Positions 1 through 64,000 of a stretch of 64,000 nt of DNA are shown one piece after another. This DNA is from Phenylobacterium sp. GTDB taxonomy: Bacteria > Pseudomonadota > Gammaproteobacteria > Enterobacterales > Alteromonadaceae. The notes under the pieces were generated by a model. It had not been told where the DNA came from. It worked only from the letters and a program-made list of their open reading frames with translations, and did no database searches. The position numbers and the translations under genes are program-made. How positions within the stretch are numbered: position 1 is the first letter of the stretch; each line of letters begins with the position of its first letter. Location of the stretch: contig JBLGCB010000002.1 in NCBI GenBank assembly GCA_047617105.1, positions 9,184 to 73,183 of the forward strand, in the 5' to 3' direction.

Positions 1-1615
1 TGGTGGCATCATAAGTCGCAGCTGTCATCGTCGGATTGGCGGAATTGCTAACAGTCACTCCATTAACGGTTAAATCCTTGATATCTACATTACCCGCGCC
101 GCCAGCCATCCAGTTATCGGCCACGGCAATATTGTATAACTTGCCGTCATCGGCATTTAGCAAGTCTTTGTTTAAAATGCCGTTGACATGATGTTGGTCG
201 GTAGTACTAAGGGTGACGGTAAAGGCGGTTTCTGAAGTGATCCCCACATTGGCCGTATCGGTTAAAGTATAACTATCGCCAGTGGTGGCGCTGAGGGTAA
301 TGGTATTGGCAACCACATCGCTATTTGAAGCGCTGACGCTGGACATTCTGGTCCCGGTCACCACCAAAGCGCCGCTACTGGCGTCATAAGTGGCAGAGGT
401 GATGGCCGGGTTGGCGTAGTTACTGACGGTGATTTCACTGGTGGGGATCGCAGTATTACCAGTCGTAATATTGGCAATAAAATCATCAAGCGTTGCCAAA
501 TTATAGGCAGTGCTATCATCTGCCACGGTAAGATTTTTATTGAGTAAAGCGTCAACTCGGCGCTTATCTACGCCGCTAATGGGGATGGTAAATTGAGTAG
601 CTGAATCCCGTTCAATATTGGTGGCAGAAGTTAAGGTATATTCACTACCACTGCCACCTTCTCCGATGATTTTCAGTTTATTCACCGTCACATCGTTGGT
701 ACCACCGCCTTGGGCTTCAAAATTGGTGCCGGTGACGACTAGGTTGCCAGTCGATGGGTCGTAGGTAACGCTGCTGATGGTTGGGGTAACACTGGCTGAA
801 CTGACCTTTGCGGTAACGCCTATGGTCGGATCATTGGTGGCATCAGAGTTATTGTCGCCTAAAAACCCGTTATAAGTGGTATTACCGGTCTGGCTGTCTG
901 CCACTGTTTGGCCAGTGGTTTCATTCAGTTTCCAATAACCGATTAAGTTGGTATCACTTAAAGTGGTCAGCTCGACGGGGCTACCACCATTGTAAGCTGT
1001 TGACACTTCGCCAGCGGTGCGTGCGGTTTTATAAAATCGAATATCATCAATGGTGCCCTGCATACTGTTGGCAGCGCCAACAAAATTACTACCAAATTGA
1101 AGTGTGGTGACACCTCCACTATGCATATCAGGTAAGGTTGTACCACTAGTCAACGCTGACCATACACTACCACCAAGAGTGGAAGTATCAGCAACATTGG
1201 CCGTGCCAACCAAACTACCATCTTGATAAAAATCCCAAGTACCACTATCAAACACCCAAACAAAATGATACCAAGTGCCCGTATTAATGGTCACCGTCGT
1301 TGTCGACTGATTAAAATCGCCCGCATTAAGGCTTGCGCCATCAAAATCACTGACCAATCGATTATTAGAGAACCCGCCCCAAACAAGTTTGGCTGAATCG
1401 TTCGCTGGCATCTCCCACATCACAATGGGCTGCGTGACATCAGAGAAATTGGCCCAAAACTCAAGGGTAAAAGTGGTTAAACCATTTAAAGGCGTTATGG
1501 CAGCATCAATTTGAATATTCTGCCCATTAGTGCCAAAAGTATATCCGGTGGTTGCCGCAGCCCATGTCTGGGTTGGCAGAATTAACAATAACAAAGCCAA
1601 TAATAATTTTTTCAT
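1..1615 (-). CDS. Secreted LamG/concanavalin-A-like lectin-domain protein with ~125-aa tandem modules (partial; C-terminus runs off the left window edge)
   Basis: Not in the supplied ORF track because the frame stays open to position 1. Minus-strand ATG at 1615-1613, then a signal-like MKKLLLALLLLILPTQTWA. Residues ~45-205 read FTLEFWANF...TWYHFVWVFDSGTWDFYQDG...GTIDDIRFYKTARTAGEV (LamG_3-type pattern). Three units then begin (S/T)xTYDxSxGxLVVTGT at aa ~283, ~408 and ~533 (period ~125 aa = 375 nt). My own by-eye translation. Confidence 0.6.
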   Translation of the reverse strand, partial: MKKLLLALLLLILPTQTWAAATTGYTFGTNGQNIQIDAAITPLNGLTTFTLEFWANFSDVTQPIVMWEMPANDSAKLVWGGFSNNRLVSDFDGASLNAGDFNQSTTTVTINTGTWYHFVWVFDSGTWDFYQDGSLVGTANVADTSTLGGSVWSALTSGTTLPDMHSGGVTTLQFGSNFVGAANSMQGTIDDIRFYKTARTAGEVSTAYNGGSPVELTTLSDTNLIGYWKLNETTGQTVADSQTGNTTYNGFLGDNNSDATNDPTIGVTAKVSSASVTPTISSVTYDPSTGNLVVTGTNFEAQGGGTNDVTVNKLKIIGEGGSGSEYTLTSATNIERDSATQFTIPISGVDKRRVDALLNKNLTVADDSTAYNLATLDDFIANITTGNTAIPTSEITVSNYANPAITSATYDASSGALVVTGTRMSSVSASNSDVVANTITLSATTGDSYTLTDTANVGITSETAFTVTLSTTDQHHVNGILNKDLLNADDGKLYNIAVADNWMAGGAGNVDIKDLTVNGVTVSNSANPTMTAATYDAT

Positions 1616-1878: not shown

Positions 1879-2517
1879 ATGGAATTTATCATGGGTGGCA
1901 TTATTATGTTTGGTGGCAATTTCACACCAAAAAACTTTGCATCTTGTGAGGGGCAGCTAGTTGCCATTAGCGCCAACCAAGCATTATACTCAATATTAGG
2001 CACTACATTTGGTGGCGACGGGCGAACCACTTTTGCGCTGCCAGATTTAAGAAGCAGGGTCCCCGTAGGACTAGGAAGAGGACCAGGACAATCAGCCATC
2101 ACTCTGGGCAAATATTATGGCACTGAATCAACTCAGATGACCATTGCGCAAATGCCAACTCACTCACATAAAGCAGCTTTTAAAGGTAACGGCGGGGGGA
2201 CAGGTAGTTCTCTCACGGCAACAGCAAAAATGTTTGTAGCAGGCAAAAACGCTGATTCTCCAGATCCGACGAGTGCTTATCTTGCCAATACAACATCAGG
2301 CTTTAGTTCTACTGCTGTCTATAACACCACCCGAGGCACAGCGACCTTGGCAGCAGATGCGATTGACGTCTCCCTCTCCGGCAGCACCGGCGGCATCACT
2401 GGTGGCACGGTCGCCGTCAATCCAACAGGTGGTGGGCAGAAGCTAACCAACATCCAACCCTCGTTGGGTATGAGATATTTGATTTGCACGCAGGGATCGT
2501 TCCCATCAAGAAGTTAA
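1879..2517 (+). CDS. Phage-tail-collar domain protein (MdpB / microcystin-dependent-protein-like)
   Basis: Frame of track ORF 1795..2517. I prefer the ATG at 1879, 6 nt after AAGGGG (1867-1872). FGGNFTPKNFASCEGQLVAISANQALYSILGTTFGGDGRTTFALPDLRSRVPVG is the classic tail-collar motif. The C-terminal NIQPSLGMRYLICTQGSFPSR is also typical. Confidence 0.75.
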   Translation: MEFIMGGIIMFGGNFTPKNFASCEGQLVAISANQALYSILGTTFGGDGRTTFALPDLRSRVPVGLGRGPGQSAITLGKYYGTESTQMTIAQMPTHSHKAAFKGNGGGTGSSLTATAKMFVAGKNADSPDPTSAYLANTTSGFSSTAVYNTTRGTATLAADAIDVSLSGSTGGITGGTVAVNPTGGGQKLTNIQPSLGMRYLICTQGSFPSRS

Positions 2518-2565
2518 CCGCTGTGCTCACCGTCAATTAAAGCGCCTTCAATACTGCTGGCGCTG

Positions 2566-3522
2566 CTATAAAACATCAAACTGGGCTCCGGCATCCAGAC
2601 CAAAACGTTCAGCAAAAGCCAAACCGCTAAATACCCCTTCAGTAATGGTTAACACATCCAAACGTAACGCACCATCGATGGTGGCCACTATCAGCCCTTC
2701 AGGCTCGCCGACCAGCAACACGGTACCAGCAGGCACACCAAAGGTTGGATGATCAACCACAGTTGCTTGCAACAATCCGACAAAAGATTGATGCCAGACA
2801 ATCATCGCGCCATTAAACAACGGATTACCCGCCCTAGCCATCGCCGCAATCTCTGCGCCTTTCATGGTTTGCCAATTGATGATTAAATCTTGCTGAGTTG
2901 GCATCGGTGCCGCCAATGCCTTCTCTGTTTTAAGGATTTGCACTGTTGCCGTCAAGGTATTGTCCTGCAACTGACCGATAAATTGCAGTACAAAACCCGG
3001 TGAGTGCTCGGCCATCACATGGCCAAAACTGTTTAAGGTGTCCAGAGGGTGCAGCGGGAAACGTTGTTGTAGCATAATATCACCGCTATCAAGCTTTTCT
3101 TCCACCTTTAAGATGCTTAAACAACCTTCGCTTTCGCGGTTGCGTATCTGCCAATACAACGGCATCGCCCCGCGATATTGTGGCAAAGCTGAGGCATGTA
3201 AATTAAACAAGCCATTGGCAAAAACCCCCAGCACAGACGTTGGTAATTTATGGCCAAACGTGAAGATTAGCCCGGTATTGGCTTGCCAAGCTTCAATTTG
3301 ATGGGCTATTTGATGGGTAATGTTTTCAGGCTGTTCAACTTGATAACGAATATGAGGGATATTGGCCTGACTCAGTTGCTGAGCCAATTGCATCGAATCT
3401 TCATCAACACGGTCGCTCAGCACCACACCAGCCAGGTGTTGTGATTGCAGTAATTGATTTAAGGTCGGGATCACGATGCTGCTAGAAGCAAAAAGCACCA
3501 CTTTAACGGTGTTATTATCCAT
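2566..3522 (-). CDS. Fmt-family formyltransferase (tailoring N-formyltransferase, PvdF/CchA-like role proposed)
   Basis: FNLHASALPQYRGAMPLYWQIRN (N-x-H plus SLLP-type motif) and LDSGDIM (catalytic Asp region), with an Fmt-like C-terminal domain. The track start at 3528 is TTG. The ATG at 3522 lies 10 nt after GGGGAG (3538-3533) and 6 nt after the TAA of the upstream gene. Confidence 0.8.
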   Translation of the reverse strand: MDNNTVKVVLFASSSIVIPTLNQLLQSQHLAGVVLSDRVDEDSMQLAQQLSQANIPHIRYQVEQPENITHQIAHQIEAWQANTGLIFTFGHKLPTSVLGVFANGLFNLHASALPQYRGAMPLYWQIRNRESEGCLSILKVEEKLDSGDIMLQQRFPLHPLDTLNSFGHVMAEHSPGFVLQFIGQLQDNTLTATVQILKTEKALAAPMPTQQDLIINWQTMKGAEIAAMARAGNPLFNGAMIVWHQSFVGLLQATVVDHPTFGVPAGTVLLVGEPEGLIVATIDGALRLDVLTITEGVFSGLAFAERFGLDAGAQFDVL

Positions 3523-3528
3523 AAACAA

Positions 3529-4818
3529 TTAACTCCCCACGCCAACCGTGGCCAAAAACCCAGGCAAGCCATTGAGCCGATAGAAGAATTTCAGCGTATC
3601 GCCACTTTGCACCAATAAATCACCGGGTTTAGCATCATGAGGGGTAAAGTTAATACATACATGCAAGTCCGGTAACGGATGGGTGATGCCCGAATCATAT
3701 TCTCCGAGATATTCATCGTTATAGGTTTTTATTTGGGTGCAGATCAGCAATATCGGTTGCTCCGGCTTATCCTGATATTGTGCCAGTGGCGGGATCACCA
3801 CCTCACCACATTCGATCAAACGGGTATTTTCATCCAGTACGCGTTCGGTTAACCCGCGCAATGAGCTTGGGGTTAAACGTAAAATGTCGCCCAATTCCAC
3901 CCGTTGATCAACGCTATCTTGTGGCATATTCGCTTCACAGAGCCTGGAACTATTATCACGCCATTGCTCAACAAACTCTTGCTGACCGAGATTTAACACC
4001 GCGCGTAAAACCACCTCTTGAGGCAAAAATACCCCATCAACTTCCATTATGGCGGCAAAATGACGGGCCATAGGCAAATGCCCCTCCCGGCTAAAACCGT
4101 GCTGCATCGCTTCTAGCACCACCATATGTATCGGTGTTGTTGGTTGATACTCACAAGCGTCCTGACAACAAATTTCATTGATATAACCACTCAAGCCCAT
4201 ATCATGAACTATCGCCTCTAAACTGGCCGCAGCACCGGGCTGGATATCAATCAGGGTCAGGCGAAGATCATTTTCATCATACAGGCCCTTTTGCTGATAA
4301 TAGCCAATTAATGGCAATAACAACGGGGCAAAGGGGCCGCAAGCTGGGTAAACGATATGCAAGCAATCATCATAGCGATTTTTTAAGTCGGCAATGGCTT
4401 GATGTGCCCCGCGAATAAATGAACGCACCCGCAAAACATCTTTTTGCGTGGTGACACAATGATCAGGCGATATCACCAAACCGTGGCGCGAAATAAACTG
4501 TCGCTTACGGGCGGAGGGATCAATATCAGCCATCTGATAAACCTGATTAAGCTGGTCAAACAGCGCCACCAGCTTTGGCTCCAAAGCAGTAATATCGACG
4601 GTTTGTTGATTGAGTATTTGGCTAACCGCATCAACAATACAGCTTGGTAAGCTGGTGCTTTGCGGTTCGGGTTCTGTTGGGGCGGTGATCTCGGATGGTA
4701 TCGATTGGCTGAGTTGTTGGCGTAATAAATCATCCAATGAACCCGTTGATAACTGCGGATCGGCGTAATCCGCAGCGGTAGAAAAAGGGGTATCGTCTCC
4801 CATCACATTTTTAGTCAT
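3529..4818 (-). CDS. PRMT-like protein (arginine methyltransferase fold with double-E loop; degenerate SAM motif I)
   Basis: By-eye colinearity with type I PRMT cores. VYPACGPFAPLL occupies the VLDVGxGxG position. LIDIQ sits at the end of beta2. LEAMQHGFSRE has exactly 8 residues between the two Glu, as in SEWMGYCLFYE. MARHFAAIMEVDGVFLPQ parallels YARDKWLAPDGLIFP. ITHPL may correspond to the THW loop. The N-terminal ~110 aa are low complexity. Confidence 0.55.
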   Translation of the reverse strand: MTKNVMGDDTPFSTAADYADPQLSTGSLDDLLRQQLSQSIPSEITAPTEPEPQSTSLPSCIVDAVSQILNQQTVDITALEPKLVALFDQLNQVYQMADIDPSARKRQFISRHGLVISPDHCVTTQKDVLRVRSFIRGAHQAIADLKNRYDDCLHIVYPACGPFAPLLLPLIGYYQQKGLYDENDLRLTLIDIQPGAAASLEAIVHDMGLSGYINEICCQDACEYQPTTPIHMVVLEAMQHGFSREGHLPMARHFAAIMEVDGVFLPQEVVLRAVLNLGQQEFVEQWRDNSSRLCEANMPQDSVDQRVELGDILRLTPSSLRGLTERVLDENTRLIECGEVVIPPLAQYQDKPEQPILLICTQIKTYNDEYLGEYDSGITHPLPDLHVCINFTPHDAKPGDLLVQSGDTLKFFYRLNGLPGFLATVGVGS

Positions 4819-4878
4819 GCTTTGTCCTTCATTATTGATCTTATGGCAAACACGATCTTAAATGTATCAGACAACAGT

Positions 4879-4897
4879 GATAATGCCATTAAATAAC
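4879..4897. promoter_or_regulatory. Candidate Fur box upstream of the PRMT-like/formyltransferase pair
   Basis: GATAATGCCATTAAATAAC matches GATAATGATAATCATTATC at 13/19 positions (the first 7 are perfect). It lies 61 nt upstream of the 4818 start. Confidence 0.3.
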
Positions 4898-4925
4898 AAA
4901 AAACTATGACGGCACTATGAAGGCA

Positions 4926-5744
4926 CTACAACATCACATTGTAATGCACTTGTTTAACGAACCAGCTGAGTTTTTCATTCAAATAGTCCAGCACTTCTTC
5001 TTTATGGCTGTTGATAAAGAAGTGGTCACCATCATACTGTCTGACATCCACATGACCGTCCATCAATTCATGCCATTTTAATACATCCGCTTCTGGCACA
5101 TCGGTATCGCCGGTGCCATACAGTAAACTGGCATCACATTTAAGTTTGTGTTCGCCTTTGTAGCTGAAGGTTTCACTAAGGGCAAAATCAGACCGCAACA
5201 CCGGCATAAAGAGTTCCATCAGTTCTTTTTGCGCCAAAATTTCTTTCGGGGTGCCGCCAAGGCTTTCGAGTTCTTCAAGAAATTCATCATCTGGCAAGGC
5301 GTGTAAAGCGCGTTTTCTGGCGGGTAAATGAATTGCACGTTTGGCAGAAACAAAGTGATATAACTGACGTGAAAGGTGTGGATTGGTCGCCGCTTTTTGT
5401 TGTAATGCACGGGCTAATTCAAAGCTGAGCATTCCGCCATTACTATGGCCAAAGAAGATAAACGGCTTGGTCAGCAACGGCATAATTTGCGGCAATAATG
5501 CCTCAATCATACCATCACAAGAGCTGATTAATGGATCGACAAAACGGCTCGCTCGACCCGGATACTGAACGCCAATCACCTCAACCTCAGGGGGTAAACT
5601 TTCACACCAGTCCTGAAAAATCTGGGCACTGCCACCAGCGTAAGGAAAACAAAATAATCTGATCACGGCATCAGGCGCCGGTTTGGTGACGTTAAACCAC
5701 TTATTACGATATAAACTTGGCATCTTTGCTAGTCCCATTTCCAT
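4926..5744 (-). CDS. Type II (editing) thioesterase of NRPS/PKS systems
   Basis: LFCFPYAGGSAQIF, GHSNGG (GxSxG nucleophile) and a C-terminal DGDHFF motif. Size is ~260 aa. The start may be an internal Met (MPSLYRNKW). Confidence 0.85.
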   Translation of the reverse strand: MEMGLAKMPSLYRNKWFNVTKPAPDAVIRLFCFPYAGGSAQIFQDWCESLPPEVEVIGVQYPGRASRFVDPLISSCDGMIEALLPQIMPLLTKPFIFFGHSNGGMLSFELARALQQKAATNPHLSRQLYHFVSAKRAIHLPARKRALHALPDDEFLEELESLGGTPKEILAQKELMELFMPVLRSDFALSETFSYKGEHKLKCDASLLYGTGDTDVPEADVLKWHELMDGHVDVRQYDGDHFFINSHKEEVLDYLNEKLSWFVKQVHYNVML

Positions 5745-5984
5745 TGTTAATTACTGAATAAAAGCGCTTATAAAGGTCAATTTCATTGATTAGCGCGAAA
5801 AAAACCTCAAAAACCCCGACTCGGACTTAGAAAAAGCCATTATATAAGCACTATAGTACCGGGCAATATAGCAAAAATGGCCTGTTTCAACAAGTTAACG
5901 CGACAGCGAAAAAGTTGATTAAAAATGCTGTGCTATACTGATTATTAAGTAGCCAATTGGCCATTAGACGCAGACGGACGTAGA

Positions 5985-8270
5985 ATGAATAAAGCAAGCT
6001 GTCTTATCAACATGCTCATCATCATTTGTTTACTGAGCAGCGGCTTAGTTTGTGGCCAAACCGATGAAGTCGACCCGTTTAACTTGCCATTAGAACAACT
6101 GTTTAACACCCAAGTCAGCACTGCCTCGGGTTGGGACGAAGCGCTGCGAGATGCCCCGGCAGCCATGATGATCATCAGCCGAAAAGACATAGAACAGCGT
6201 GGTTACAGCAGTCTCGGCGATATTTTTGCCGACCTGCCAGGTTTTGATGCCATCGGTTTTGGCACCACTGCTCAAATTGTCGCCTATCAACGGGGTTACC
6301 GCACCACCGCCATGCAGCGCACGCTCATTGCCATCAATGGTGTATTAGACAACCACCTATGGACCCATCGACTAACCGCCAACCACCAATACCCGATGAC
6401 CGCCATTGAACGTATCGAAGTGCTTTATGGCCCGGCTGGGTCTATTTATGGCCCCAATGCATTTCTGGGCGTAGTGAATATTATTACTCGCCAACCAGAT
6501 GAGGTTGATGAAGAAGATGAACAACCCTATTGGCTCAACGTCAGCGCCACTTTGGGCGAAGATAACACCCGTGGTTTTAGTCTTGACGGCGGTGGCAAAC
6601 TCGGTGATGTAAACTTCAATTTTGCGCTGCAACAATACCGCAGCGACGGTGCCAGTCTTGATGACTATCCTAGCTGGGGATTTGCCAATGCCAACTGGCT
6701 GAACAATACCGACGTTTGGGGACCGGTATTACAACATCAAAGCAACGGCGAAAATTACGGCCATTATCTAAACCCGGATGATGACTGGGGTTTGCTCAGT
6801 GAGATCAGCTACCACGACACCACCCTCGGCGTGATCTCTTGGTCAACCACCCGCGGTTATGGTCTCTATTATGCCTTTGATCATGCTCAACCCAATGCCA
6901 GTTGGCAAACCGGATCTCGTCAGTTCTACCTCAAACATGACACCGCCATTAATCATAAACTCAAGTCAAAAACCTTGCTTAAATACCATATCAGTGATTA
7001 TCGCGGCGACTTTGCTGAGGCCATGGTGGACTCAAACGAAGGTCAACAAAACTTCTCTTACGTGTCGATTTCTGATTGGAACACCGATAACGATAGCTGG
7101 AAGTTTCGTCAAGATTTTGAGTATCAGGCCAACGACCAGTTAAAAGTCAGTGGTGGACTCAAGTATGCGCGTAAAGACCTGACCAAAGCCTATGATATTT
7201 GCAATTATTATGCTGATAGCTTTTGCTCAGCGGATAATGGCAACGACGACGGCCCCCATGGGCTGGGTGCTGGTATTTTTCATAGCACCGATGCACAACT
7301 TACCCTTGGGCCACCTCCTTTGGCTAATATACCTCGCCTCAATAAAGTCAAAACCAGCGATAAAGGCGCTTATGTCCAGCTGGGTTGGTTGCCCGAGCAT
7401 TGGCGTTTTTCGGCCAGTTTACGTTGGGATGATAATTCTGTTTACGGTGCATTTTTCAAACCTCGTCTGTCTGCCATTCATCACTTGAACGACCAGAGCA
7501 CCATTAAACTGATCTACGCCGAAGCCTTTCAAGAACCCGCCCCACAGCAACTCTACGGTGGTTGGACTGGGCGTAAAGCCAACCCAGATTTACAACCCGA
7601 AGAAGTGAGCAATATCGAATTGATCTTGATGCACCAACAGGGCAACTGGTCCCATGATGTTTCACTCTATCACGCCAAATATAATCATGTGATCAAAGAA
7701 GAAGCGCAAAATGCCGGAAAACGTGATGTCACTGGTGTTGAATACCGGGGTAACACCACCTTTGCCAATCCGCTAGGCAACACTGACAGCGTTGAAGATA
7801 TCACGGCCAACTTCTATTACAGCTGGACCGACGCCAAAAGTGCCATCACCTACGACCATGATATCGATGAATGGATTGATGGCCGAGCAGAGTTGGGCGA
7901 TATCGCCCGCCATAAAATCAGCGCGGCGGTTAACCTTCCTTGGAGTGAAGCCATCAATATCAACCTCAAAGCCAACTGGGTGGGTGATCGCACCCTTTAT
8001 TTACGCAATAAACTGCGGGCGCAGGGTAAAAAGGCCGACAGTTATACCACTGTGGACTTGACGTTAAACTGGTCATTCAACCCCATGGCTGATCACCCTG
8101 TTAAACTTAAACTCGCCATCACCAATTTATTTGATAAGGCTTATTACCATCCTGGTGGTGAGGCGGCAGATTCGGGAGATGATTTTACCGAGCGCGCTCA
8201 AGGGGTGAGAAACTCACTTGTCCCCCAGGTCGGGCGACGTTGGTTATTGAGCGTTGGGTATGAATTTTAG
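5985..8270 (+). CDS. TonB-dependent outer-membrane receptor
   Basis: Signal peptide. Plug motifs DAPAAMMIISRKDIEQRGYSSLGDIFADLPGF and IEVLYGPAGSIYGPNAFLGVVNIITR. 761 aa. C-terminal beta-barrel signature ...RRWLLSVGYEF. Confidence 0.9.
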   Translation: MNKASCLINMLIIICLLSSGLVCGQTDEVDPFNLPLEQLFNTQVSTASGWDEALRDAPAAMMIISRKDIEQRGYSSLGDIFADLPGFDAIGFGTTAQIVAYQRGYRTTAMQRTLIAINGVLDNHLWTHRLTANHQYPMTAIERIEVLYGPAGSIYGPNAFLGVVNIITRQPDEVDEEDEQPYWLNVSATLGEDNTRGFSLDGGGKLGDVNFNFALQQYRSDGASLDDYPSWGFANANWLNNTDVWGPVLQHQSNGENYGHYLNPDDDWGLLSEISYHDTTLGVISWSTTRGYGLYYAFDHAQPNASWQTGSRQFYLKHDTAINHKLKSKTLLKYHISDYRGDFAEAMVDSNEGQQNFSYVSISDWNTDNDSWKFRQDFEYQANDQLKVSGGLKYARKDLTKAYDICNYYADSFCSADNGNDDGPHGLGAGIFHSTDAQLTLGPPPLANIPRLNKVKTSDKGAYVQLGWLPEHWRFSASLRWDDNSVYGAFFKPRLSAIHHLNDQSTIKLIYAEAFQEPAPQQLYGGWTGRKANPDLQPEEVSNIELILMHQQGNWSHDVSLYHAKYNHVIKEEAQNAGKRDVTGVEYRGNTTFANPLGNTDSVEDITANFYYSWTDAKSAITYDHDIDEWIDGRAELGDIARHKISAAVNLPWSEAININLKANWVGDRTLYLRNKLRAQGKKADSYTTVDLTLNWSFNPMADHPVKLKLAITNLFDKAYYHPGGEAADSGDDFTERAQGVRNSLVPQVGRRWLLSVGYEF

Positions 8271-8463
8271 CGAATAATGTGAGCGCAAAATACACTGCCA
8301 TCCATCCCCAGTTCAATATCTCTTATGCTTTTAAAGCATGTTACTAGTGGTTTTAGAATGTTTTATTCTCAAAATAATTGCTGACTAAATAACCAGTATG
8401 ATTGCCTGGTGCTATACTTATATACAGTATAAAGCTGATAACTATAGCATTCAGGAGAACAAA

Positions 8464-10002
8464 ATGTTGTTAAATGAAAATCACTTATTTGATCACGCCA
8501 ATCGCGAATATAAGAATATTAGTAATATCGAACTTGGCGATGAAATCACGCTCATGGCCGGACAAATTACTGCCGCGACCTATTGTTTTTTAAAAATGCT
8601 CGCTGAATTCGACCGCCGCAAAGGTTGGGACAACGGGTGTATCCGTTCTTGCTCACACTGGTTAAGCTTAAATTGTGGCATGACTGCGACTACGGCTCGC
8701 GAAAAGCTACGGGTTGCCCATTGCCTTGAAAAACTGCCTAACATCAATAAAGAATTTGAAAGCGGTAAGCTCAGCTATTCTAAAGTGCGCGCCATGACCA
8801 GAGTGGCGACTGATGACAACGAAGACATTTTATTAAGTGTTGCCATCGGCGGCACTGCCAGTCATATAGAAAAGCTGGTTCGTAGATATCAACTGGTGGA
8901 TGAAAATCAAAATCCTGTAGAGCAAGGCGATGAATATCAGCAACGAAAGTTGGACTATTATCAGGATGATGAGGGCATGTGGATTCTGCACGCTAAATTA
9001 CCTCAGCTTGAAGGCGGCTTACTGGTTAAAGCGATTGAAGAAATCATAAGGCAGCAGGATAAAAATCATTCAGAACAAGTGTCTGAAAAGGAGCAAAATG
9101 CTTCCGCGGAAGCGCCTGGACAGGAACAAGATGCTTCCACACAAGTGCCTGAAAAGGAGCAAAATGCTTCCGCGGAAGCGCCTGGACAGGAACAGATAAG
9201 CGTGCCAGTGGTTGAAAAAGCCAGCTATAGTCAAAAACGTGGGGACGCGCTTGCTTCTCTAGCGGAACACTACATAGCGACAGCAACTGTTGATGATGAA
9301 AATGGCGGCGTTCAGGCATTGGCTGGTCATGAACGCTGTCAGGTGGTATTACATTTAAGTGTTGATACTTTAGAGGCTGAAGCCAAACCTAAACACGAGC
9401 ACGGTGAAAGCTGCCATTACCTCACCCCGCCGAATGTGGATTATCAGTGGATCTCTATAGCCAATGCCAAACGTTTTAGTAGTGATGCCAGTTTGTATAC
9501 GGTTTTAGAAGATAAATACGGTAACGTGCTCAATGTTGGCAGAAAAACCAGGACTGTCGGCACCGCATTGAAGCGAGCGCTGGATTTGCGCGATGAAATC
9601 TGCCGTTTCCCCGGATGTTGTGCTAATAAGTATGTTGATTTTCATCATATCAAACACTGGGCAGATGGTGGTGAGACCGAACCTGATAACCTTATCAAGC
9701 TATGTCGATTTCATCATGCTCAACTACATAAGGGTCATTACGCCATCACAGTACAACAACAAACTCAAGAGAACAACGGCCAGAAGTGGGAGTTTGAAAC
9801 AGCCGCAGGTGAAATCATAAACCCGAACCCTACACCACTACCAATTACAACAAACAAAGACTTTTTAGGCGTACAATGGCCCAACATTGATAGTCGAACT
9901 GGGGTTTCTAGTTGGCGGGGCGAGCCATTGAATTATTCAGAGGCACTTGGAGATTTACTTTGGTGTAAGCATCGTAATTTCGATAATTTACTTCGTTATT
10001 AA
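8464..10002 (+). CDS. HNH endonuclease-domain protein with DUF222-like N-terminal region
   Basis: C-terminal CRFPGCCANKYVDFHHIKHWADGGETEPDNLIKLCRFHHAQLH (HNH/Zn ribbon). N-terminal SCSHWLSLNCGMTATTAREKLRVAHCL resembles DUF222. The ATG at 8464 follows AGGAG (8453-8457); the track start at 8398 lacks an RBS. Confidence 0.75.
   Translation: MLLNENHLFDHANREYKNISNIELGDEITLMAGQITAATYCFLKMLAEFDRRKGWDNGCIRSCSHWLSLNCGMTATTAREKLRVAHCLEKLPNINKEFESGKLSYSKVRAMTRVATDDNEDILLSVAIGGTASHIEKLVRRYQLVDENQNPVEQGDEYQQRKLDYYQDDEGMWILHAKLPQLEGGLLVKAIEEIIRQQDKNHSEQVSEKEQNASAEAPGQEQDASTQVPEKEQNASAEAPGQEQISVPVVEKASYSQKRGDALASLAEHYIATATVDDENGGVQALAGHERCQVVLHLSVDTLEAEAKPKHEHGESCHYLTPPNVDYQWISIANAKRFSSDASLYTVLEDKYGNVLNVGRKTRTVGTALKRALDLRDEICRFPGCCANKYVDFHHIKHWADGGETEPDNLIKLCRFHHAQLHKGHYAITVQQQTQENNGQKWEFETAAGEIINPNPTPLPITTNKDFLGVQWPNIDSRTGVSSWRGEPLNYSEALGDLLWCKHRNFDNLLRY
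9083..9194 (+). repeat. In-frame 46-nt perfect direct repeat, period 66 nt (22 aa: EKEQNASAEAPGQEQ...)
   Basis: CTGAAAAGGAGCAAAATGCTTCCGCGGAAGCGCCTGGACAGGAACA occurs at 9083-9128 and again at 9149-9194. Confidence 0.9.
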
Positions 10003-12002: not shown

Positions 12003-13001
12003 ATGAAACATTTTATCACCACCGCCGATTGGAGCCAGCAAGAACTTCAATCGATGATTGATACCGCCAATGAGTTTAAGCAAGGCGCACAAAGCGACGC
12101 CCTTAAAGGCAAGTCTGTGGCACTGATGTTTTTTAACCCAAGTCTGCGTACCCGCACTTCATTTGAGCTGGGTACTTGGCAAATGGGTGGCCATGCCATC
12201 GTACTCGAACCGGGCAAAAGTGCTTGGCCATTAGAATTTGAACTCGGCACCACCATGGACAGCACCGCCGAAGAACATGTGATTGAAGCAGCGCAAGTAT
12301 TATCTAGATATTGCGATTTGATTTGTGTGCGTGCATTCCCAGCCTTTATTGACTGGCAACAAGACCGACAAGATAGCATGATCAAGGCATTTGCCCAATA
12401 TGCCACGGTGCCGGTGATCAACATGGAAACCATCACCCACCCTTGTCAAGAACTGGCCCATATGCAGATGATTCAGCAAAACATCGGCAAGCCAAAAAAC
12501 AAAAAATATGTCCTCACCTGGACCTATCACCCTAAACCGCTCAATACCGCCGTGGCCAACTCATCGCTGCTGATTTCAACCAAATTTGGCATGGATGTGA
12601 CCTTACTCTGTCCCAACGAAAACTACCTATTAGACCCGCGTTATATGGAACTGGCCAAACACAATGCCGAGCAAAACGGCGGTAGCTTTAATGTCACCCA
12701 TAACATCGATGAAGCTTACGAAGGCGCAGATATCGTTTATGCCAAAAGCTGGGGCGCACTGCCATTTTTCGGCAATTGGGCACCAGAGAAAGAAATGCGC
12801 GAGCAATACAAACACTTTATTGTCGATGAAGAAAAAATGGCCAAAACCAATAACGGCCTGTTCTCTCATTGCTTACCACTGCGAAGAAATATTAAAGCCA
12901 CCGATGGCGTGATGGATGCCCCTTATTGTAAGGCCATCGACGAAGCTGAAAACCGTATTTATGTGCAAAAAGCCGTGATGAAGCAATTAGTGAACCAATA
13001 A
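12003..13001 (+). CDS. argF': N-acetylornithine carbamoyltransferase-type transcarbamylase (Xanthomonas argF' type)
   Basis: FFNPSLRTRTSFE, VPVINMETITHPCQELAH, KKYVLTWTYHPKPLNTAVANS, YAKSWGALPFFGNW and FSHCLPLRRN. These are near-identical in pattern to the acetyl/succinyl-ornithine transcarbamylase family as I remember it. They are not the classical OTCase HPxQ/HCLP spacing. Confidence 0.8.
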   Translation: MKHFITTADWSQQELQSMIDTANEFKQGAQSDALKGKSVALMFFNPSLRTRTSFELGTWQMGGHAIVLEPGKSAWPLEFELGTTMDSTAEEHVIEAAQVLSRYCDLICVRAFPAFIDWQQDRQDSMIKAFAQYATVPVINMETITHPCQELAHMQMIQQNIGKPKNKKYVLTWTYHPKPLNTAVANSSLLISTKFGMDVTLLCPNENYLLDPRYMELAKHNAEQNGGSFNVTHNIDEAYEGADIVYAKSWGALPFFGNWAPEKEMREQYKHFIVDEEKMAKTNNGLFSHCLPLRRNIKATDGVMDAPYCKAIDEAENRIYVQKAVMKQLVNQ

Positions 13002-13040
13002 ACAGAATTAACACCAATTTTTAGTAGGAAAGAAAACGCT

Positions 13041-14288
13041 ATGAGCAACACCACAGCAGCACCAGACCTCACTCAAGACAAACAAGTCGTACTGGCATTC
13101 TCAGGCGGATTAGATACCAGCTTCTGCGTACCTTACCTAATTGAACAAGGTTATAAAGTCACCACCATTTTTGTTGATTCAGGCGGTGTGAGTGAAGAAG
13201 AAAAGCAAACCATCGAACAACGCGCCATGTCATTAGGTGCGGTTGCCCATAAAGAAGTCAGCATCGCCGCAGGATTGTGGCAACGGGTGATCACCCCGCT
13301 GATTCAAAGCGGCCAATGGTATCAAAACCAATATCCTTTATTATGCTCAGACCGTTATTTGATTGTTGAAGCGGCACTGAAATTATGTGATGAACTGGGC
13401 ACCAAAAACTTCTCCCACGGCTGTACTGGCATGGGTAACGACCAAGTCAGATTCGATATGACCGTGCATTGCCTTGGCGACTACAACATTCTTTCACCAA
13501 TTCGAGAAATTCAAAAACTGACCGGCGAAGTGCGCGCTTATGAGCAACAATACCTGCAAGACAAGGGTTTCTCGGTCTCTAGCCAAGTCAGCCATTATTC
13601 AATTAACGAAAACCTGCTCGGTGCCACCATTTCGGGCTCTGAAATCGACCAATGGCAGCAACCAGCAGACGCCAGTTATGTATTAACACCTGCGCCTTCT
13701 TCACAAGCCGGTCTTGAACCAACCACGTTGACCCTAGCCTTTAAACAAGGTGAACTGGTTGCACTGAACAACGACCCATTAAACGACAGCTATACTGGCG
13801 AACAGGTGATGCAGCAGTTGAACAAATTGGTCGGCAGTTATGGTATTGGCCGAGGTGTATATACCGGCGATACCACCATTGGTCTTAAAGGCCGCATCGT
13901 ATTTGAAGCCCCGGCCATCGCCGCACTTAACGCTGCCCATACCGCATTAGAGCAAGCGGTATTGTCCAAAGCACAAAATCGATTTAAAGCCACCATCGCC
14001 CAGAAGTGGACCGAGCTGGTGTATGAAGGTTTCTTCTATGAGCCGTTAAAATATGACCTCGAAGCGTTTTTAAGCTCTTCACAAACCCAGGTCACTGGCA
14101 CCGTTACCTTAGAACTCAGTCAAGGCCAGCTACACGCCGTGGCAGTTGAATCTGACAATATTCTCAAAGACAGCGGTTCTGTTTATGCCCAATCGGCTTC
14201 GTGGAATATCGAAGAAGCACTGGGTTTCATCAAATTATTTGGCAAGTCGGCAACATTAGCGGCTAACCAACTCAAAGCAAAGAAGTAG
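13041..14288 (+). CDS. argG: Argininosuccinate synthase
   Basis: N-terminal VLAFSGGLDTS ATP-PPase motif, GCTGMGNDQVRF, 415 aa, arg operon context. Confidence 0.9.
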   Translation: MSNTTAAPDLTQDKQVVLAFSGGLDTSFCVPYLIEQGYKVTTIFVDSGGVSEEEKQTIEQRAMSLGAVAHKEVSIAAGLWQRVITPLIQSGQWYQNQYPLLCSDRYLIVEAALKLCDELGTKNFSHGCTGMGNDQVRFDMTVHCLGDYNILSPIREIQKLTGEVRAYEQQYLQDKGFSVSSQVSHYSINENLLGATISGSEIDQWQQPADASYVLTPAPSSQAGLEPTTLTLAFKQGELVALNNDPLNDSYTGEQVMQQLNKLVGSYGIGRGVYTGDTTIGLKGRIVFEAPAIAALNAAHTALEQAVLSKAQNRFKATIAQKWTELVYEGFFYEPLKYDLEAFLSSSQTQVTGTVTLELSQGQLHAVAVESDNILKDSGSVYAQSASWNIEEALGFIKLFGKSATLAANQLKAKK

Positions 14289-14298
14289 GGCACGGCCA

Positions 14299-15426
14299 AT
14301 GACTCAAACAGCATTAACGAATACCCTCGCCCATCTTGAGGCGTTGGTAAGCTTTGATACCCAAAACCCGCCAAGGGCAATCACCGTTGACAGCGAGATT
14401 TTCGCTTACCTTAAGCAACAGTTGCCGGGTTTTGAACTCACCATGTTTGACGCTGGCGAAGGTTGCATCAGCTTGCTGGCCACCCGAGGCCAGCCAGAGG
14501 TCTTATTCAACTTTCATATTGATACCGTACCAGTCGCCCCTAACTGGTCAGTAGACCCCTTTACCTTGATTGTTGATGAAGAAAAAGCCATCGCTACTGC
14601 CATCGGTGCCTGTGATATCAAAGGCGCAGCAGCGTGTATGTTATCAGCCGTCAGCAAGACCGACGGTGATGTCGCATTGCTATTTTCTTCTGATGAAGAA
14701 CATGGTTCGAGCAAGGCCATCAAGTCTTTTTTGAGTCAATTGGCTGAAGTCGGCAACTTCAAAAAAGTCATTGTCGCCGAACCCACGATGGCCCAAGCAA
14801 CCCTAGCCCATCGCGGTATCATGTCTGCTAAGGGTTATTTTAGCGGTATTTCTGGTCATGCTTCAGAAGCCAGAGCGTTTAAAGACAGCGCCGTGCATAA
14901 AGCAGGCAAATGGATGGCATCAGCACTGGATTGGGTTGAACAACAAACCCACAGCTTTGACAGCCTCAGCGGTTTGCCGTTTAACATTGGCAAAATTGAT
15001 GGCGGTATCAAAGCCAACATGATCGCCGCCGATTGTGAACTGGCTTTTGGTTATCGACCCTTGCCGGGGCAAAATGCTGAACTGTTACTGGCTGAGTTAC
15101 AACAACTCGGTGGTGACGATTGTAAACTGGTGGCAGGTTTTCAGGGTCCAACCCTACCCGCTGCCAATCAAGATTTTGCCACTGCCATCGATAATGCTCA
15201 AGAACTGGCCCAATCGTGCGGTTTACCGATTGGCCAAGCAGTCAATTTTTGGACTGAAGCGAGTTTGTTTTCACAAGCCGGTTGCGCGACTTTGGTTTTT
15301 GGACCAGGTAATATCGCCCAGGCACATACTGCCGATGAATGGGTAGCACTGGAACAGTTACAGCAAGTTGAGCAGTGTTATTGTAATATCCTCTCGGGCG
15401 CTGCTCTGTCAGGCTTAGAAGGATAA
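14299..15426 (+). CDS. argE: M20-family deacetylase, acetylcitrulline/acetylornithine deacetylase type
   Basis: LVSFDTQNPPRAI, FHIDTVP, ACDIKGAAA and LLFSSDEEHG. The pattern matches the Xanthomonas ArgE' type that partners with argF'. Confidence 0.8.
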   Translation: MTQTALTNTLAHLEALVSFDTQNPPRAITVDSEIFAYLKQQLPGFELTMFDAGEGCISLLATRGQPEVLFNFHIDTVPVAPNWSVDPFTLIVDEEKAIATAIGACDIKGAAACMLSAVSKTDGDVALLFSSDEEHGSSKAIKSFLSQLAEVGNFKKVIVAEPTMAQATLAHRGIMSAKGYFSGISGHASEARAFKDSAVHKAGKWMASALDWVEQQTHSFDSLSGLPFNIGKIDGGIKANMIAADCELAFGYRPLPGQNAELLLAELQQLGGDDCKLVAGFQGPTLPAANQDFATAIDNAQELAQSCGLPIGQAVNFWTEASLFSQAGCATLVFGPGNIAQAHTADEWVALEQLQQVEQCYCNILSGAALSGLEG

Positions 15427-15438
15427 AAGGAAAAAGTG

Positions 15439-16767
15439 ATGAAAACGAATCAACCCAAAGTCAAAGAGACCATTATTCAATTGTTGTCTAACCTGGGTAA
15501 CCCTCAGGAAATTGACCAATATATGAAGCGTTTCGTCAACGCGGGTCAGGCGCATTTTGCGGTGATCAAAGTGGGTGGTGCGGTACTCGACAACGATTTA
15601 GACAACCTGTGTTCATCACTGGCCTTTCTCGAACAAATCGGCTTATTCCCCATCGTGGTTCACGGTGCCGGGCCACAGTTAAGCAAAAACCTCGAGGCAG
15701 GCAATATCGAGTGCCAATTTATTGAAGGACAAAGAGTCACCTCGGCGGCAGTATTAAGAGTCGCCAAGAAAACCTTTATTCAGCAAAATCTTAAATTAGC
15801 CAACAAATTGCAGGCAATGGGGGTGAAAACGGCGTCAATTACCTCCGGCGTGTTTGGTGCGACATTAACCACCAATACCGAGCTTGGTTATGTCGGTGAA
15901 GTCAATAACATCGACTTAGAGCCGATTAATGCCGCCATTGATAGCGGTGCTATCCCCATTCTATCTTCACTGGCTGAAACAGATACCGGCCAATACCTTA
16001 ACGTTAACGCCGATATCGCCACCAATCAGCTGGCTATCGCGTTAAAACCCTACAAAATTATCTTTTTGACTGAAACCGGAGGATTGCTCAATGAAGATGG
16101 CAAAATTATCTCCTCGGTCAATCTGGCCACCGATTACGATAGCCTGATGATGCAAGACTGGCTCAAAGGCGGCATGAAGCTTAAGATTCAGCAAGTGGCC
16201 GATATTCTTAGCCAACTGCCCGCCACCGCCTCAGTATCTATCACCACCCCAGCGCATCTGGCCAAGGAACTCTTTACCCACAAAGGTTCTGGCACCCTGC
16301 TGCGTAAAGGTGAAGCAATATTCACTCATGTGGATAGTAAAAGCATCGAAAAACAACGATTGTCACATTTACTCGAATCAGGTTTTGATAAAGTATTAGA
16401 CCTCGATTACTTCGAAAAAGCCCATATCCACAAATCCTATATTACCGGCTGTTACCGCGCCGCAGCGCTGATCACCTTACCTGAGGATGTGCCTAAAGAT
16501 ATTCCATTTCTCGACAAGTTTGTCGTTGCCGACGATGCCAAAGGCGAAGGTCTGGGTAAAACCGTGTGGCGTAAACTGGTTGAAGATAACCCCAAATTGT
16601 TCTGGCGCTGTCGCCCTGACAATACCATTAACGGCTTTTACTTTAAGCAATCCACCGGTTGTTATAAAACCGATGAGTGGACAGTATTTTGGTATGGGGT
16701 CAGTGATTATAAACAAATCGCTGAATGCATCGACTACGCCCTAAGTAAACCGGCGACATTGAACTAG
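15439..16767 (+). CDS. argB: Bifunctional-type N-acetylglutamate kinase with C-terminal GNAT domain (ArgA/B)
   Basis: AAK domain (FAVIKVGGAVL, VVHGAGPQ) plus a ~150-aa C-terminal acetyltransferase-like region (AKGEGLGKTVWRKL). ATG at 15439, 7 nt after AAGGA; the track start at 15436 is GTG. Confidence 0.8.
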   Translation: MKTNQPKVKETIIQLLSNLGNPQEIDQYMKRFVNAGQAHFAVIKVGGAVLDNDLDNLCSSLAFLEQIGLFPIVVHGAGPQLSKNLEAGNIECQFIEGQRVTSAAVLRVAKKTFIQQNLKLANKLQAMGVKTASITSGVFGATLTTNTELGYVGEVNNIDLEPINAAIDSGAIPILSSLAETDTGQYLNVNADIATNQLAIALKPYKIIFLTETGGLLNEDGKIISSVNLATDYDSLMMQDWLKGGMKLKIQQVADILSQLPATASVSITTPAHLAKELFTHKGSGTLLRKGEAIFTHVDSKSIEKQRLSHLLESGFDKVLDLDYFEKAHIHKSYITGCYRAAALITLPEDVPKDIPFLDKFVVADDAKGEGLGKTVWRKLVEDNPKLFWRCRPDNTINGFYFKQSTGCYKTDEWTVFWYGVSDYKQIAECIDYALSKPATLN

Positions 16768-16779
16768 TAGGTAAAATAG

Positions 16780-17763
16780 ATGACAAACAAATACACATTA
16801 GGGATCGTCGGTGCCCGAGGATACGTAGGCAAAGAGTTGCTCGCCTTAATTGCGTCACACCCACAAATTGAGGTGAGCTGGATAAGCTCACGCCAACTCA
16901 AAGGTCAATCGGCCAAAGAACTGGTCGACGCGTTGGCCGATATCACCGTAGAAGACTTATCACCACAACAAGTGGCGGCGAAACAAAGTGATATCGTGGT
17001 GCTGGCCTTACCCAATGGCCTGGCTGCGCCTTTTGTCGCGGCATTAGCAGATGTACCGCAGACTGATCTACCACAGACTAAAGTGATCATCGACTTATCT
17101 GCCGATTATCGATTTGACCCAAACTGGACCTATTCGCTGCCAGAATTGGATGTTATAGAACCGTTCACTGCAAAAGCAGGCGCGGTGAAAATCAGCAACC
17201 CCGGTTGTTACGCCACCGCCATGCAATTGGCAATTGCACCACTCAAAGACCGCATTGTTGCCAGACCCAACTGCTTTGGCGTCTCTGGTTATAGCGGTGC
17301 AGGCACCAAACCTTGCGCCAACAACGATCCAGAAAACCTCAGCAATAACCTGATTGGTTACGGTTTGGTCGAACATATCCATGAACAAGAAGTCAGCGCC
17401 CGAATGCAGCAAGGTGTGTCATTTTCGCCTCATGTGGCAGAGTTTTTTCGCGGTATCAACATGACCATTCAGTTTGAATTTGACCAGCCACAAAACTCGG
17501 CAGATTTGCTGGCGCTGTTTAACGACTTTTATGCCAACCAGCCATTTGTCTCGGCGCAACAGGCTGTGCCGACCATCAAGCAAATCGTCAACACACCAAA
17601 CTGCTTAATCGGTGGTTTTAGCGTCAGCAGCGACGGCTTACGGGCCACCATCATCAGTTGCCTAGATAACTTAACCAAAGGTGCCGCCACTCAGGCATTA
17701 CAAAATATCAACCTAGCGTTAGCTTTACCATCAACGACAGGTATCACAGGAGAGAGAGCATGA
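16780..17763 (+). CDS. argC: N-acetyl-gamma-glutamyl-phosphate reductase
   Basis: GIVGARGYVGKEL NAD motif, SNPGCYAT active-site Cys, operon context. Confidence 0.85.
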   Translation: MTNKYTLGIVGARGYVGKELLALIASHPQIEVSWISSRQLKGQSAKELVDALADITVEDLSPQQVAAKQSDIVVLALPNGLAAPFVAALADVPQTDLPQTKVIIDLSADYRFDPNWTYSLPELDVIEPFTAKAGAVKISNPGCYATAMQLAIAPLKDRIVARPNCFGVSGYSGAGTKPCANNDPENLSNNLIGYGLVEHIHEQEVSARMQQGVSFSPHVAEFFRGINMTIQFEFDQPQNSADLLALFNDFYANQPFVSAQQAVPTIKQIVNTPNCLIGGFSVSSDGLRATIISCLDNLTKGAATQALQNINLALALPSTTGITGERA

Positions 17764-56087: not shown

Positions 56088-58310
<2,223 letters not shown>

Positions 58311-59772: not shown

Positions 59773-61995
<2,223 letters not shown>

Positions 61996-63456: not shown

Positions 63457-64000
63457 CTACAACGGTTCATACGCCAATACCTGAATCAACTTAAGCCGAT
63501 GTTCAAAACAGCGAACCACCTGCTGACAGTGATCTAGTGGCATAAAACTATGGCGTAATGTACTCGTCACCACATCCGCTTTGGCAACGACACCTTTAAT
63601 CAACTTCTTGACCATTTTATCATTCAGCGCTAACCCTTGACCCAATTGAATAAAATCATAACCGATAGGTTGGCCATAAGCAGTGTTATAACCCGGTGCC
63701 AGTTCATGGCTCTTTTCTTCGATTTTTAATAACGGTAGCGCGAGGTAACAGGAGGTAAAGGTACTTTGATAGGGGGCAGTACTGACAAAATCGTAAATCG
63801 GGGCCAATTGGTTTTTTGCCGTTTGGGGGATTAACACCGCTAAATTACGTAAGTGAAAATCATTGTTGCCCAGTAAATAAGCATAGATCACTCGCAAAAA
63901 CAGGTCTTTTTTGAACGGCAAACTGCTGTCGATAGTGTTGATTAAAAAACCACAGGCACTTTCATAACTCACGGTTTGCTCATCATTAATATTGCCATAT
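63457..64000 (-). CDS. hipA: HipA-family serine/threonine kinase toxin, C-terminal part (N-terminus beyond the right window edge)
   Basis: YLLGNNDFHLRNLAVLI (GxxDxHxxN catalytic loop) and LAPIYDFVSTAPY. The frame stays open upstream of the track 'start' (a GTG at 63972) to position 64000 (...YGNINDEQTVSYES). Confidence 0.65.
   Translation of the reverse strand, partial: YGNINDEQTVSYESACGFLINTIDSSLPFKKDLFLRVIYAYLLGNNDFHLRNLAVLIPQTAKNQLAPIYDFVSTAPYQSTFTSCYLALPLLKIEEKSHELAPGYNTAYGQPIGYDFIQLGQGLALNDKMVKKLIKGVVAKADVVTSTLRHSFMPLDHCQQVVRCFEHRLKLIQVLAYEPL

Follow-up and report, generated by a model that had tools for sequence, protein, structure and literature searches.

A 64,000-nucleotide stretch of DNA (hereafter the window; GenBank assembly GCA_047617105.1, contig JBLGCB010000002.1, labelled Phenylobacterium sp.) carries a gene for a 429-aa protein resembling protein arginine methyltransferases (PRMTs), followed after a few nucleotides by a gene for an Fmt-like formyltransferase, which raises the question of what such a pair of enzymes modifies in a bacterium. 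PRMTs are usually treated as eukaryotic enzymes. To our knowledge, relatives in bacteria are known from comparative genomics alone, and the literature searched yielded none that has been characterised biochemically. An earlier note on this DNA, made from the sequence alone, had proposed that the pair tailors a basic residue of a siderophore encoded 15 kb away. The analysis presented here shows that the 429-aa protein, referred to as MTL1, represents a large, so far uncharacterised family of bacterial methyltransferases with the PRMT fold, that the MTL1/Fmt-like pair belongs to a conserved, undescribed gene set together with phage-tail-collar-domain and giant surface proteins, and that it is not part of a siderophore pathway. 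The interest of the MTL family lies in its size, in the retention of the PRMT catalytic positions and in the presence of an obvious candidate substrate encoded next door.

Fold and catalytic positions of MTL1 and its partner

Both open reading frames (ORFs) of the pair were re-derived with coordinates identical to those reported earlier, and are arranged as follows:

3529..4818, minus strand: 429-aa ORF, MTL1; PRMT-fold, predicted to be probably an S-adenosylmethionine (SAM)-dependent methyltransferase
2566..3522, minus strand: Fmt/ArnA-like two-domain formyltransferase, 318 aa from the ATG at 3522 (PF00551 4.8e-17, PF02911 6.8e-07)
3523..3538, minus strand: MTL1/Fmt-like coupling junction, with a GGGGAG run at 3538-3533, the TAA stop at 3531-3529 and a 6-nt spacer at 3528-3523

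Direct sequence searches with MTL1 gave no match in Pfam, NCBIfam or the PDB, and none in PADLOC or PHROGs, so the PRMT kinship has to be read from structure and from profile alignments. An AlphaFold (AF2) model built with the homologue alignment (pLDDT 85.3, pTM 0.83) consists of a helical N-terminal region, a Rossmann domain (residues ~150-277) and a beta-rich C-terminal domain (~307-425), and displays the Rossmann domain plus PRMT-type beta-barrel architecture. The top 50 Foldseek matches of this model in the PDB are all PRMT7, PRMT5, CARM1, PRMT1, PRMT6 or PRMT9, with no unrelated Rossmann family among them, with probability 1.00 and E values ranging from 2e-10 (best 2.4e-10) to 6e-8. The colinearity with type I PRMTs described in the earlier note is reproduced both by this comparison and by hhalign, which aligns MTL1 with human PRMT1 (query sequence checked to be identical to 6nt2_A) over 133-185 columns with E ~0.0015. 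This alignment pairs VVLEAMQHGFSRE with IIISEWMGYCLFYE and HFAAIMEVDGVFLPQ with ARDKWLAPDGLIFPD, and sets D127/R130 on KDEVRT, IVYPACGP on VLDVGSGTG, E236 and E245 on both glutamates of SEWMGYCLFYE, and DGVFLPQ on DGLIFPD. The hhalign probability is just 2-17% against the single PRMT1 sequence or a vertebrate PRMT1/8 alignment, because the PRMT1 template profile is shallow: the PRMT1 homologue search gave vertebrate PRMT1/8 only, at identities of at least 65%, and added little diversity. When the profile of the paralogous MTL2 proteins (see below) is run against the PDB, the best match is C. elegans PRMT7 (E 0.0074), over a region that spans the DxxR motif, motif I and the double-E loop, and PRMT7 is also the best match of a combined MTL1+MTL2 profile (E 0.034).

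Concerning the motifs, invariance was judged from an alignment of 41 homologues out of the 351 found for MTL1, which come mostly from marine Gammaproteobacteria. Four motifs are invariant in this alignment, namely YPACGPxAPL, LEAMQHGFSRE, EYDSGITHPLPD and NGLPGF, and the key residues of the protein are D127, R130, G161, D191, D220, E236 and E245. The Arg of the PRMT DxxR motif binds the SAM carboxylate; in MTL1 this motif is represented by the invariant D127/R130, in the paralogue by the consensus DxxRT, and it lies opposite KDEVRT of PRMT1 and DFDRN of PRMT7. The double-E loop, whose exact spacing had already been noticed, follows the E-x8-E pattern with both E236 and E245 invariant, is conserved in MTL2 too, and aligns with the double-E of PRMT1 and PRMT7 in hhalign and HMMER. 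Overall, the positions shared by MTL1 and MTL2 include R130, G161, D191, D220/A221, E236 and E245, all of them used by PRMTs.

Motif I is where MTL1 departs from the rule. The canonical (V/I)LD(V/I)GxGxG is absent, and MTL1 reads IVYPACGPFA, in which the central G161 alone is kept. The earlier observation that ACGPFA stands in place of GxGxG was right, and YPACGPFA is in fact invariant, but the replacement is less complete than it seemed, given the retained glycine and the near-canonical YAGCGPFA of MTL2. A second suggestion, that ITHP is a THW-like element, was not reproduced: SGITHP is nearly invariant in MTL1 whereas its His is variable in MTL2, and an alignment of the C-terminal halves, which was itself not significant, did not pair ITHP with THW.

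Compared with PRMT7, PRMT5, CARM1/PRMT4 and PRMT1, MTL1 shares the class I Rossmann domain with a C-terminal beta-barrel, a DxxR motif ahead of motif I, an E-x8-E double-E loop directly after strand beta4 and a conserved DG(I/L)xxP segment. A conserved W-containing segment lies opposite the start of the PRMT1 dimerisation arm in the hhalign alignment, and the two-module architecture of PRMT7 and PRMT9 is mirrored by tandem MTL2-MTL1 proteins. It differs from the eukaryotic enzymes in an identity of only ~10-13%, in the Tyr that replaces Asp/Glu in its motif I (YPACGPF), in an extra conserved helical N-terminal region, in a THW loop that is not demonstrably present, and in being encoded in bacterial operons with genes for Fmt-like or GNAT, collar and giant surface proteins. 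MTL1 is predicted to work like a PRMT, with which it has the fold and three signature motifs in common. Because canonical motif I fails, as does statistically significant sequence membership (no Pfam PRMT model matches MTL1), and because the activity is predicted only, MTL1 would at present be filed under a PRMT-fold family and not as a PRMT.

The second gene of the pair starts 6 nt after the MTL1 stop, as confirmed by direct reading of the junction (minus strand, GTG GGG AGT TAA ttgttt ATG); the median MTL-to-Fmt gap is ~4 nt in 73 loci. A Shine-Dalgarno-like GGGGAG sits within the 3' end of the MTL1 gene, ahead of the Fmt-like ATG, and the Fmt-like gene is translationally coupled to MTL1. 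Its product shows PF00551 and PF02911 both above their gathering thresholds, has Fmt (3tqq, 4e-21) and ArnA (1e-15) as nearest PDB entries, and contains the intact N-x-H...D set attributed to it before (N107/H109/D145). Like Fmt and the N-terminal domain of ArnA, it combines an N-terminal formyltransferase domain with a C-terminal OB-like domain and has the RAxNP motif. Unlike them, it is always paired with a PRMT-fold gene, and it reaches 107.8 bits with the fmt equivalog model TIGR00460 versus a cut-off of 201.5, i.e. about half.

The conserved gene set and its paralogous branch

The conservation of the pair, for which the earlier note had asked for a survey, was assessed in a set of 82 loci, 79 of them from one genome per species and three obtained by exact look-ups. 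The Fmt-like gene comes directly after MTL1 in 81, the one exception being cut by the end of its contig. Phage-tail-collar-domain genes, in one or two copies, are present in 78 of these loci, and a giant protein (mostly >2000 aa) with immunoglobulin (Ig)/cadherin/He_PIG repeats in 73. The window itself has both directly downstream of the pair, where the earlier note had missed them, and according to synteny they are the real context of the two enzymes:

1879..2517, plus strand: phage-tail-collar-domain protein (COG4675-type, tail-fibre-like), 212 aa (PF07484 3.8e-25)
1..1615, minus strand: giant surface protein, 5' part (538 codons), running off the start of the window (PF13385 2.6e-12)

The window collar gene is convergent with the Fmt-like gene. 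Its product reaches 88.1 bits with PF07484 (cut-off 24), matches PHROG tail and tail-fibre families and, as is also the case for MTL1, has no signal peptide upon inspection of the N-terminus. The Collar domain, a PxHxH motif and a conserved C-terminal strand are common to T4 gp12-type collar proteins, to COG4675 ('microcystin-dependent protein') and to the partner protein, but the latter is chromosomal and lies outside any prophage, with no phage record carrying a methyltransferase relative: tblastn against phage genomes found a relative of neither MTL1 nor MTL2. A free-standing collar protein has been detected in the Ruegeria exoproteome (PMC4949626). The giant of the window starts with a Sec signal peptide and a LamG domain, followed by roughly 90-residue repeats that are 45-70% identical to those of a 2504-aa giant in locus L026. 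In general, the giants share a Sec signal peptide but differ in their N-terminal domains (LamG, DUF4347 and others), and their C-termini are OmpA-like barrels or GlyGly-CTERM-like anchors.

The set can be seen as a unit on a RefSeq-annotated Pseudoalteromonas chromid, where the entire five-gene operon lies between unrelated housekeeping genes, in the order hypothetical protein, formyltransferase family protein, hypothetical protein, tail fiber protein and 2867-aa Ig-like protein. Subsets of loci harbour accessory genes, among them a sulfotransferase, an AlkB-like 2-oxoglutarate (2OG) oxygenase, a GNAT and an unknown 160-aa protein. AspH-like hydroxylase, 2OG oxygenases and sulfotransferase are accessory kinds known to modify peptides or proteins, and their cofactors are all cytoplasmic. 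No account of a PRMT-fold enzyme with Fmt-like or GNAT proteins, collar proteins and giant adhesins was found in the literature searched.

An exhaustive profile search yielded 1537 representative clusters at 50% identity, most of which are shorter (~340 aa) paralogues, MTL2, homologous to MTL1 over their full length (hhalign E 4e-73) and matched by no Pfam or NCBIfam model. MTL2 is found upstream of MTL1 in many loci, whereas most MTL1 loci, the window included, lack it. Of the 36 metagenomic loci that reach 6 kb, 9 have collar genes next to MTL2, and several of these also carry GNATs. One locus is ordered MTL2, Fmt-like, MTL2, collar, collar, and in L084 (1332-9160) eight collar-domain genes in tandem, with two 119-aa unknowns among them, stand directly upstream of a GNAT and MTL2. 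Several collar-associated loci have MTL2 beside giants of 1.5-2.2 thousand residues; the two such giants inspected carry SprB-type repeats and one ends in a type IX secretion system (T9SS)-type C-terminal domain, features typical of Bacteroidota, from which these loci apparently derive. The synteny of the module extends across phyla.

Fusions are also found, namely GNAT-MTL1 (P0030), MTL2-GNAT, AspH-MTL2, MTL2-PhyH and tandem MTL2-MTL1. A reading of the ~720-aa homologues as methyltransferase-Fmt fusions was rejected, as they proved to be tandem MTL2-MTL1 proteins (P0073 and P0081-P0083, 720-740 aa) with the canonical-motif module first.

Concerning the acylation step, 17 of the 82 Fmt-like partners have lost the N/H/D set yet keep the C-terminal domain (L009, L011, L016, L018, L020, L023, L026, L034, L043, L046, L047, L051, L054, L055, L063, L076 and L080). 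A RimI-like GNAT gene lies directly upstream in six loci, and all six are among these 17 (Fisher p = 3.5e-5). Since all GNAT loci fall among those with a dead Fmt-like partner, the distribution suggests that N-acylation is a required step, in which acetylation can replace formylation. The Fmt-like gene is retained even without its catalytic residues, hence its conserved role may be non-catalytic, and the protein may have a second function of this kind besides catalysis.

The collar N-termini show a related pattern. Those beginning M-E or M-D (MEFIMGG in the window) are seen only with an intact Fmt-like gene, and the collars of loci with a dead one all begin M-A, M-S or M-P. A rule tying the N-terminus (M-E/D versus M-A/S) to Fmt status was nevertheless rejected, as the Pseudoalteromonas clade has intact Fmt-like genes with M-S/A collars; the pattern is merely a lead towards N-terminal capping.

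What the module may modify

The explanation that we favour, tentatively and at somewhat under an even chance, is a protein-modifying module that couples arginine methylation to N-acylation and acts on the collar-domain protein. Of its four parts, two would be enzymes, namely a methyltransferase and an N-acyltransferase (the Fmt-like protein, or a GNAT in loci whose Fmt-like gene is degenerate), and the others one or two collar proteins and a giant Ig/cadherin-repeat surface protein. MTL1, located in the cytoplasm, would bind SAM through putative contacts of R130 with the carboxylate, of the loop around G161, of D191 with the ribose and of D220 with the adenine. E236 and E245 would clamp the guanidinium group of an arginine in a protein substrate, most likely the neighbouring collar protein, which would thereby become methylated. 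The Fmt-like enzyme would transfer a formyl group from N10-formyl-tetrahydrofolate to an amine of this substrate, possibly at the N-terminus, and the trimeric fibre-like protein, once modified, might then work with the giant surface protein in adhesion or in interactions between cells. The collar protein is preferred as candidate because it is small, is always encoded nearby and is in the cytoplasm when synthesised. Fold, invariant residues, coupling of the two genes, cross-phylum synteny, fusions and accessory enzymes are established by the analysis, whereas SAM use, the arginine acceptor, amine formylation, the substrate and what the module does for the cell are inferred.

If the collar protein is indeed the substrate, the module would represent enzymatic arginine methylation of a defined bacterial protein and a protein-directed Fmt-like formyltransferase, and it would give a function to the enigmatic free-standing tail-collar proteins found beside giant adhesins in marine and soil bacteria. 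A broader version, which is conceivable though doubtful, holds that this is a true prokaryotic protein-arginine methylation system, paired with an acyltransferase (Fmt-like or GNAT) that caps the N-terminus or an amine and dedicated to collar proteins working with giant adhesins, present in Proteobacteria and Bacteroidota, and that the family is the bacterial stock from which eukaryotic PRMTs arose, the PRMT7-like tandem forms included.

Several observations weigh against the collar protein reading. At the level of the enzyme, the Foldseek TM-scores between MTL1 and PRMTs are merely ~0.4-0.5, the sequence likeness is marginal (E 0.001-0.03), motif I is atypical, with a Tyr in place of the acidic residue and the loop PACGPF, and the equivalence of ITHP with the THW loop is unconfirmed. 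At the level of the locus, a collar gene is missing from L046, a complete locus that does have the pair and the giant gene, a collar gene is near only ~25% of MTL2 genes, and the Fmt-like partner is retained though catalytically dead in a fifth of the loci (21%). Collar N-terminus and Fmt status correlate only imperfectly as well, in a pattern that follows clades and is confounded by phylogeny, and the case for the collar protein as substrate is throughout an indirect one. Finally, a small-peptide substrate stays plausible because bacterial PRMT relatives are called peptide methylases in the summary given by PMC3417536.

This last point leads to a different pathway, in which the PRMT-fold enzyme methylates free arginine, a derivative of it or a short peptide, the Fmt-like or GNAT protein acylates the product, hydroxylases and a sulfotransferase decorate it, and the collar and giant proteins bind or display the resulting metabolite, signal or toxin. 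We consider it unlikely, although the AspH-like, PhyH and AlkB-like 2OG oxygenases, the sulfotransferase, the GNAT and the thioesterase (2 loci) resemble natural-product tailoring enzymes, the AspH-like protein weakly matches TIGR04531 ('nonproteinogenic amino acid hydroxylase'), and a C39-peptidase ABC exporter adjoins the operon in L026. The same summary, citing Aravind, Abhiman and Iyer 2011, places bacterial PRMT relatives as peptide methylases in antibiotic- or secondary-metabolite-like operons with dioxygenases and non-ribosomal peptide synthetases (NRPSs), and the MTL family shares with them the combination of PRMT kin with peptide dioxygenases (here AspH-like, PhyH and AlkB-like neighbours or fusions). 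As far as this summary goes, however, the stress there is on NRPS and amine-oxidase operons and on NRPS-embedded domains, whereas the MTL family has no conserved NRPS and its constant partners are the collar protein, the giant surface protein and the Fmt-like or GNAT acyltransferase. In the module no NRPS, polyketide synthase, carrier protein, ATP-grasp or precursor-peptide gene is conserved, the core genes of the window leave no room for a small ORF between them, and the sole universally conserved partners that are not enzymes are two proteins.

It could also be the giant surface protein that is methylated and acylated, before or during Sec export, with the collar protein serving as an adaptor or co-assembled tip. 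The presence of a giant in 73 of 82 loci and beside collar-associated MTL2 genes apparently from Bacteroidota agrees with this, as does the composition of L046, and extracellular repeat proteins are classically modified by AspH-type hydroxylation and by sulfation. We nonetheless regard it as decidedly unlikely: the giants have unrelated N-terminal domains (LamG, DUF4347 and others) and differing anchors, therefore no common recognition element is evident; Sec export in the unfolded state leaves cytoplasmic enzymes little opportunity; and in the 14 kb covered of L084 eight collar genes, a GNAT and MTL2 come without a giant gene. There is likewise only a slim chance that MTL1, with its degenerate glycine loop, is a pseudoenzyme, a scaffold or partner that does not bind SAM, and that the Fmt-like protein is mainly structural. 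Non-catalytic partners are known from the T. brucei PRMT1 prozyme and from the second module of PRMT7, and the contrast of YPACGPF in MTL1 with YAGCGPF in its paralogue, the tandem MTL2-MTL1 fusions, the co-occurrence of both paralogues in many loci and the share of Fmt-like partners without catalytic residues would all fit such a role. Yet MTL2 is missing from most MTL1 loci, some MTL homologues reach borderline Methyltransf_25 scores, and the invariance of G161, D191, D220, R130 and both glutamates is the pattern of an active site under selection.

The siderophore cluster and other features of the window

The proposal that the pair tailors a basic residue of an NRPS siderophore (~20-50 kb) under Fur control is highly improbable. 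It drew on the genes next door, which a domain scan confirmed:

4926..5744, minus strand: type II thioesterase (PF00975 2.9e-44), 107 nt upstream of MTL1 and on the same strand
5985-8270: TonB-dependent receptor

These two adjacent genes, the NRPS cluster of the window, with its fatty-acyl-AMP ligase, TauD-type hydroxylase and receptors, and a 13/19 Fur-like site are in line with the proposal, but the synteny of the 82 loci contradicts it. All 165 related loci are devoid of NRPS genes, and L026 is the only one among them in which the thioesterase recurs. Moreover, the pair is not contiguous with the NRPS cluster of the window, since an HNH/DUF222 gene and an arginine-biosynthesis operon (12003-19058) intervene. 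PvdF, CchA and similar proteins are Fmt-superfamily N5-hydroxyornithine formyltransferases that formylate the amine of a basic residue; they act together with an N-hydroxylase inside NRPS clusters, and neither of these is conserved with the Fmt-like partner. That the window lacks an N-hydroxylase had been observed before and holds for all scanned ORFs of at least 150 aa, the NRPS cluster carrying a TauD-type hydroxylase instead; the formyl-hydroxamate logic, earlier called incomplete, is therefore absent. As for the Fur-like site, its score was given correctly but is at chance level, as 45 sites in the 64 kb score at least 13/19 and none in this intergenic region reaches 14, so that it carries no weight. 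The false link between the pair and the siderophore cluster is thus removed. The thioesterase of L026 is 61% identical to that of the window, and its gene, which precedes the methyltransferase gene, overlaps at its stop codon the start of a GNAT gene; the enzyme is a neighbour, at most a lineage-specific accessory, and not a core part of the module.

The NRPS cluster (20054-52267) comprises an ABC exporter, an NRPS with a terminal thioesterase, a C-A-T module with a TubC-type docking domain, a fatty-acyl-AMP ligase-ACP, the TauD-type hydroxylase, a PepSY-TM protein and two ORFs of ~2800-2900 aa, outside the ORF scan, that are presumably NRPSs. A TonB-dependent receptor follows at 53120-55303. 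The product looks like a siderophore or lipopeptide of the acylated beta-hydroxy-amino-acid type. The arginine-biosynthesis operon (plus strand) is complete, with OTCase, argininosuccinate synthase, an ArgE-like M20 peptidase, a bifunctional N-acetylglutamate synthase/kinase-type protein, ArgC and ArgH; its closeness to a putative arginine methyltransferase is probably coincidental, because it is not conserved in related loci. In the 2248-9716 region of L026 a C39-peptidase ABC exporter, a second ABC protein and a possible membrane-fusion protein lie divergently upstream and, with the thioesterase, give hints of peptide export or thioester chemistry in that sublineage.

The DUF222/HNH endonuclease gene (8398-10002, plus strand) contains an internal near-perfect repeat of a low-complexity peptide (SEKEQNASAEAPGQEQ...) and looks like a mobile or selfish element inserted beside the TonB-dependent receptor gene. 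Further along, 56088-58268 and 59773-61932 (minus strand) encode two paralogous thermolysin-type (M4) metalloproteases in tandem, with two PPC domains each, and a 171-aa ORF at 63457-63972 (minus strand), whose match is confined to the C-terminal part of HipA, is possibly a truncated toxin gene. The one identical database protein (P0001) bears the label of a metagenome-assembled genome, 'Phenylobacterium sp.'. At ~46% G+C, the window is closest to Moritella, Algicola and Thalassomonas, and this label is probably a binning error.

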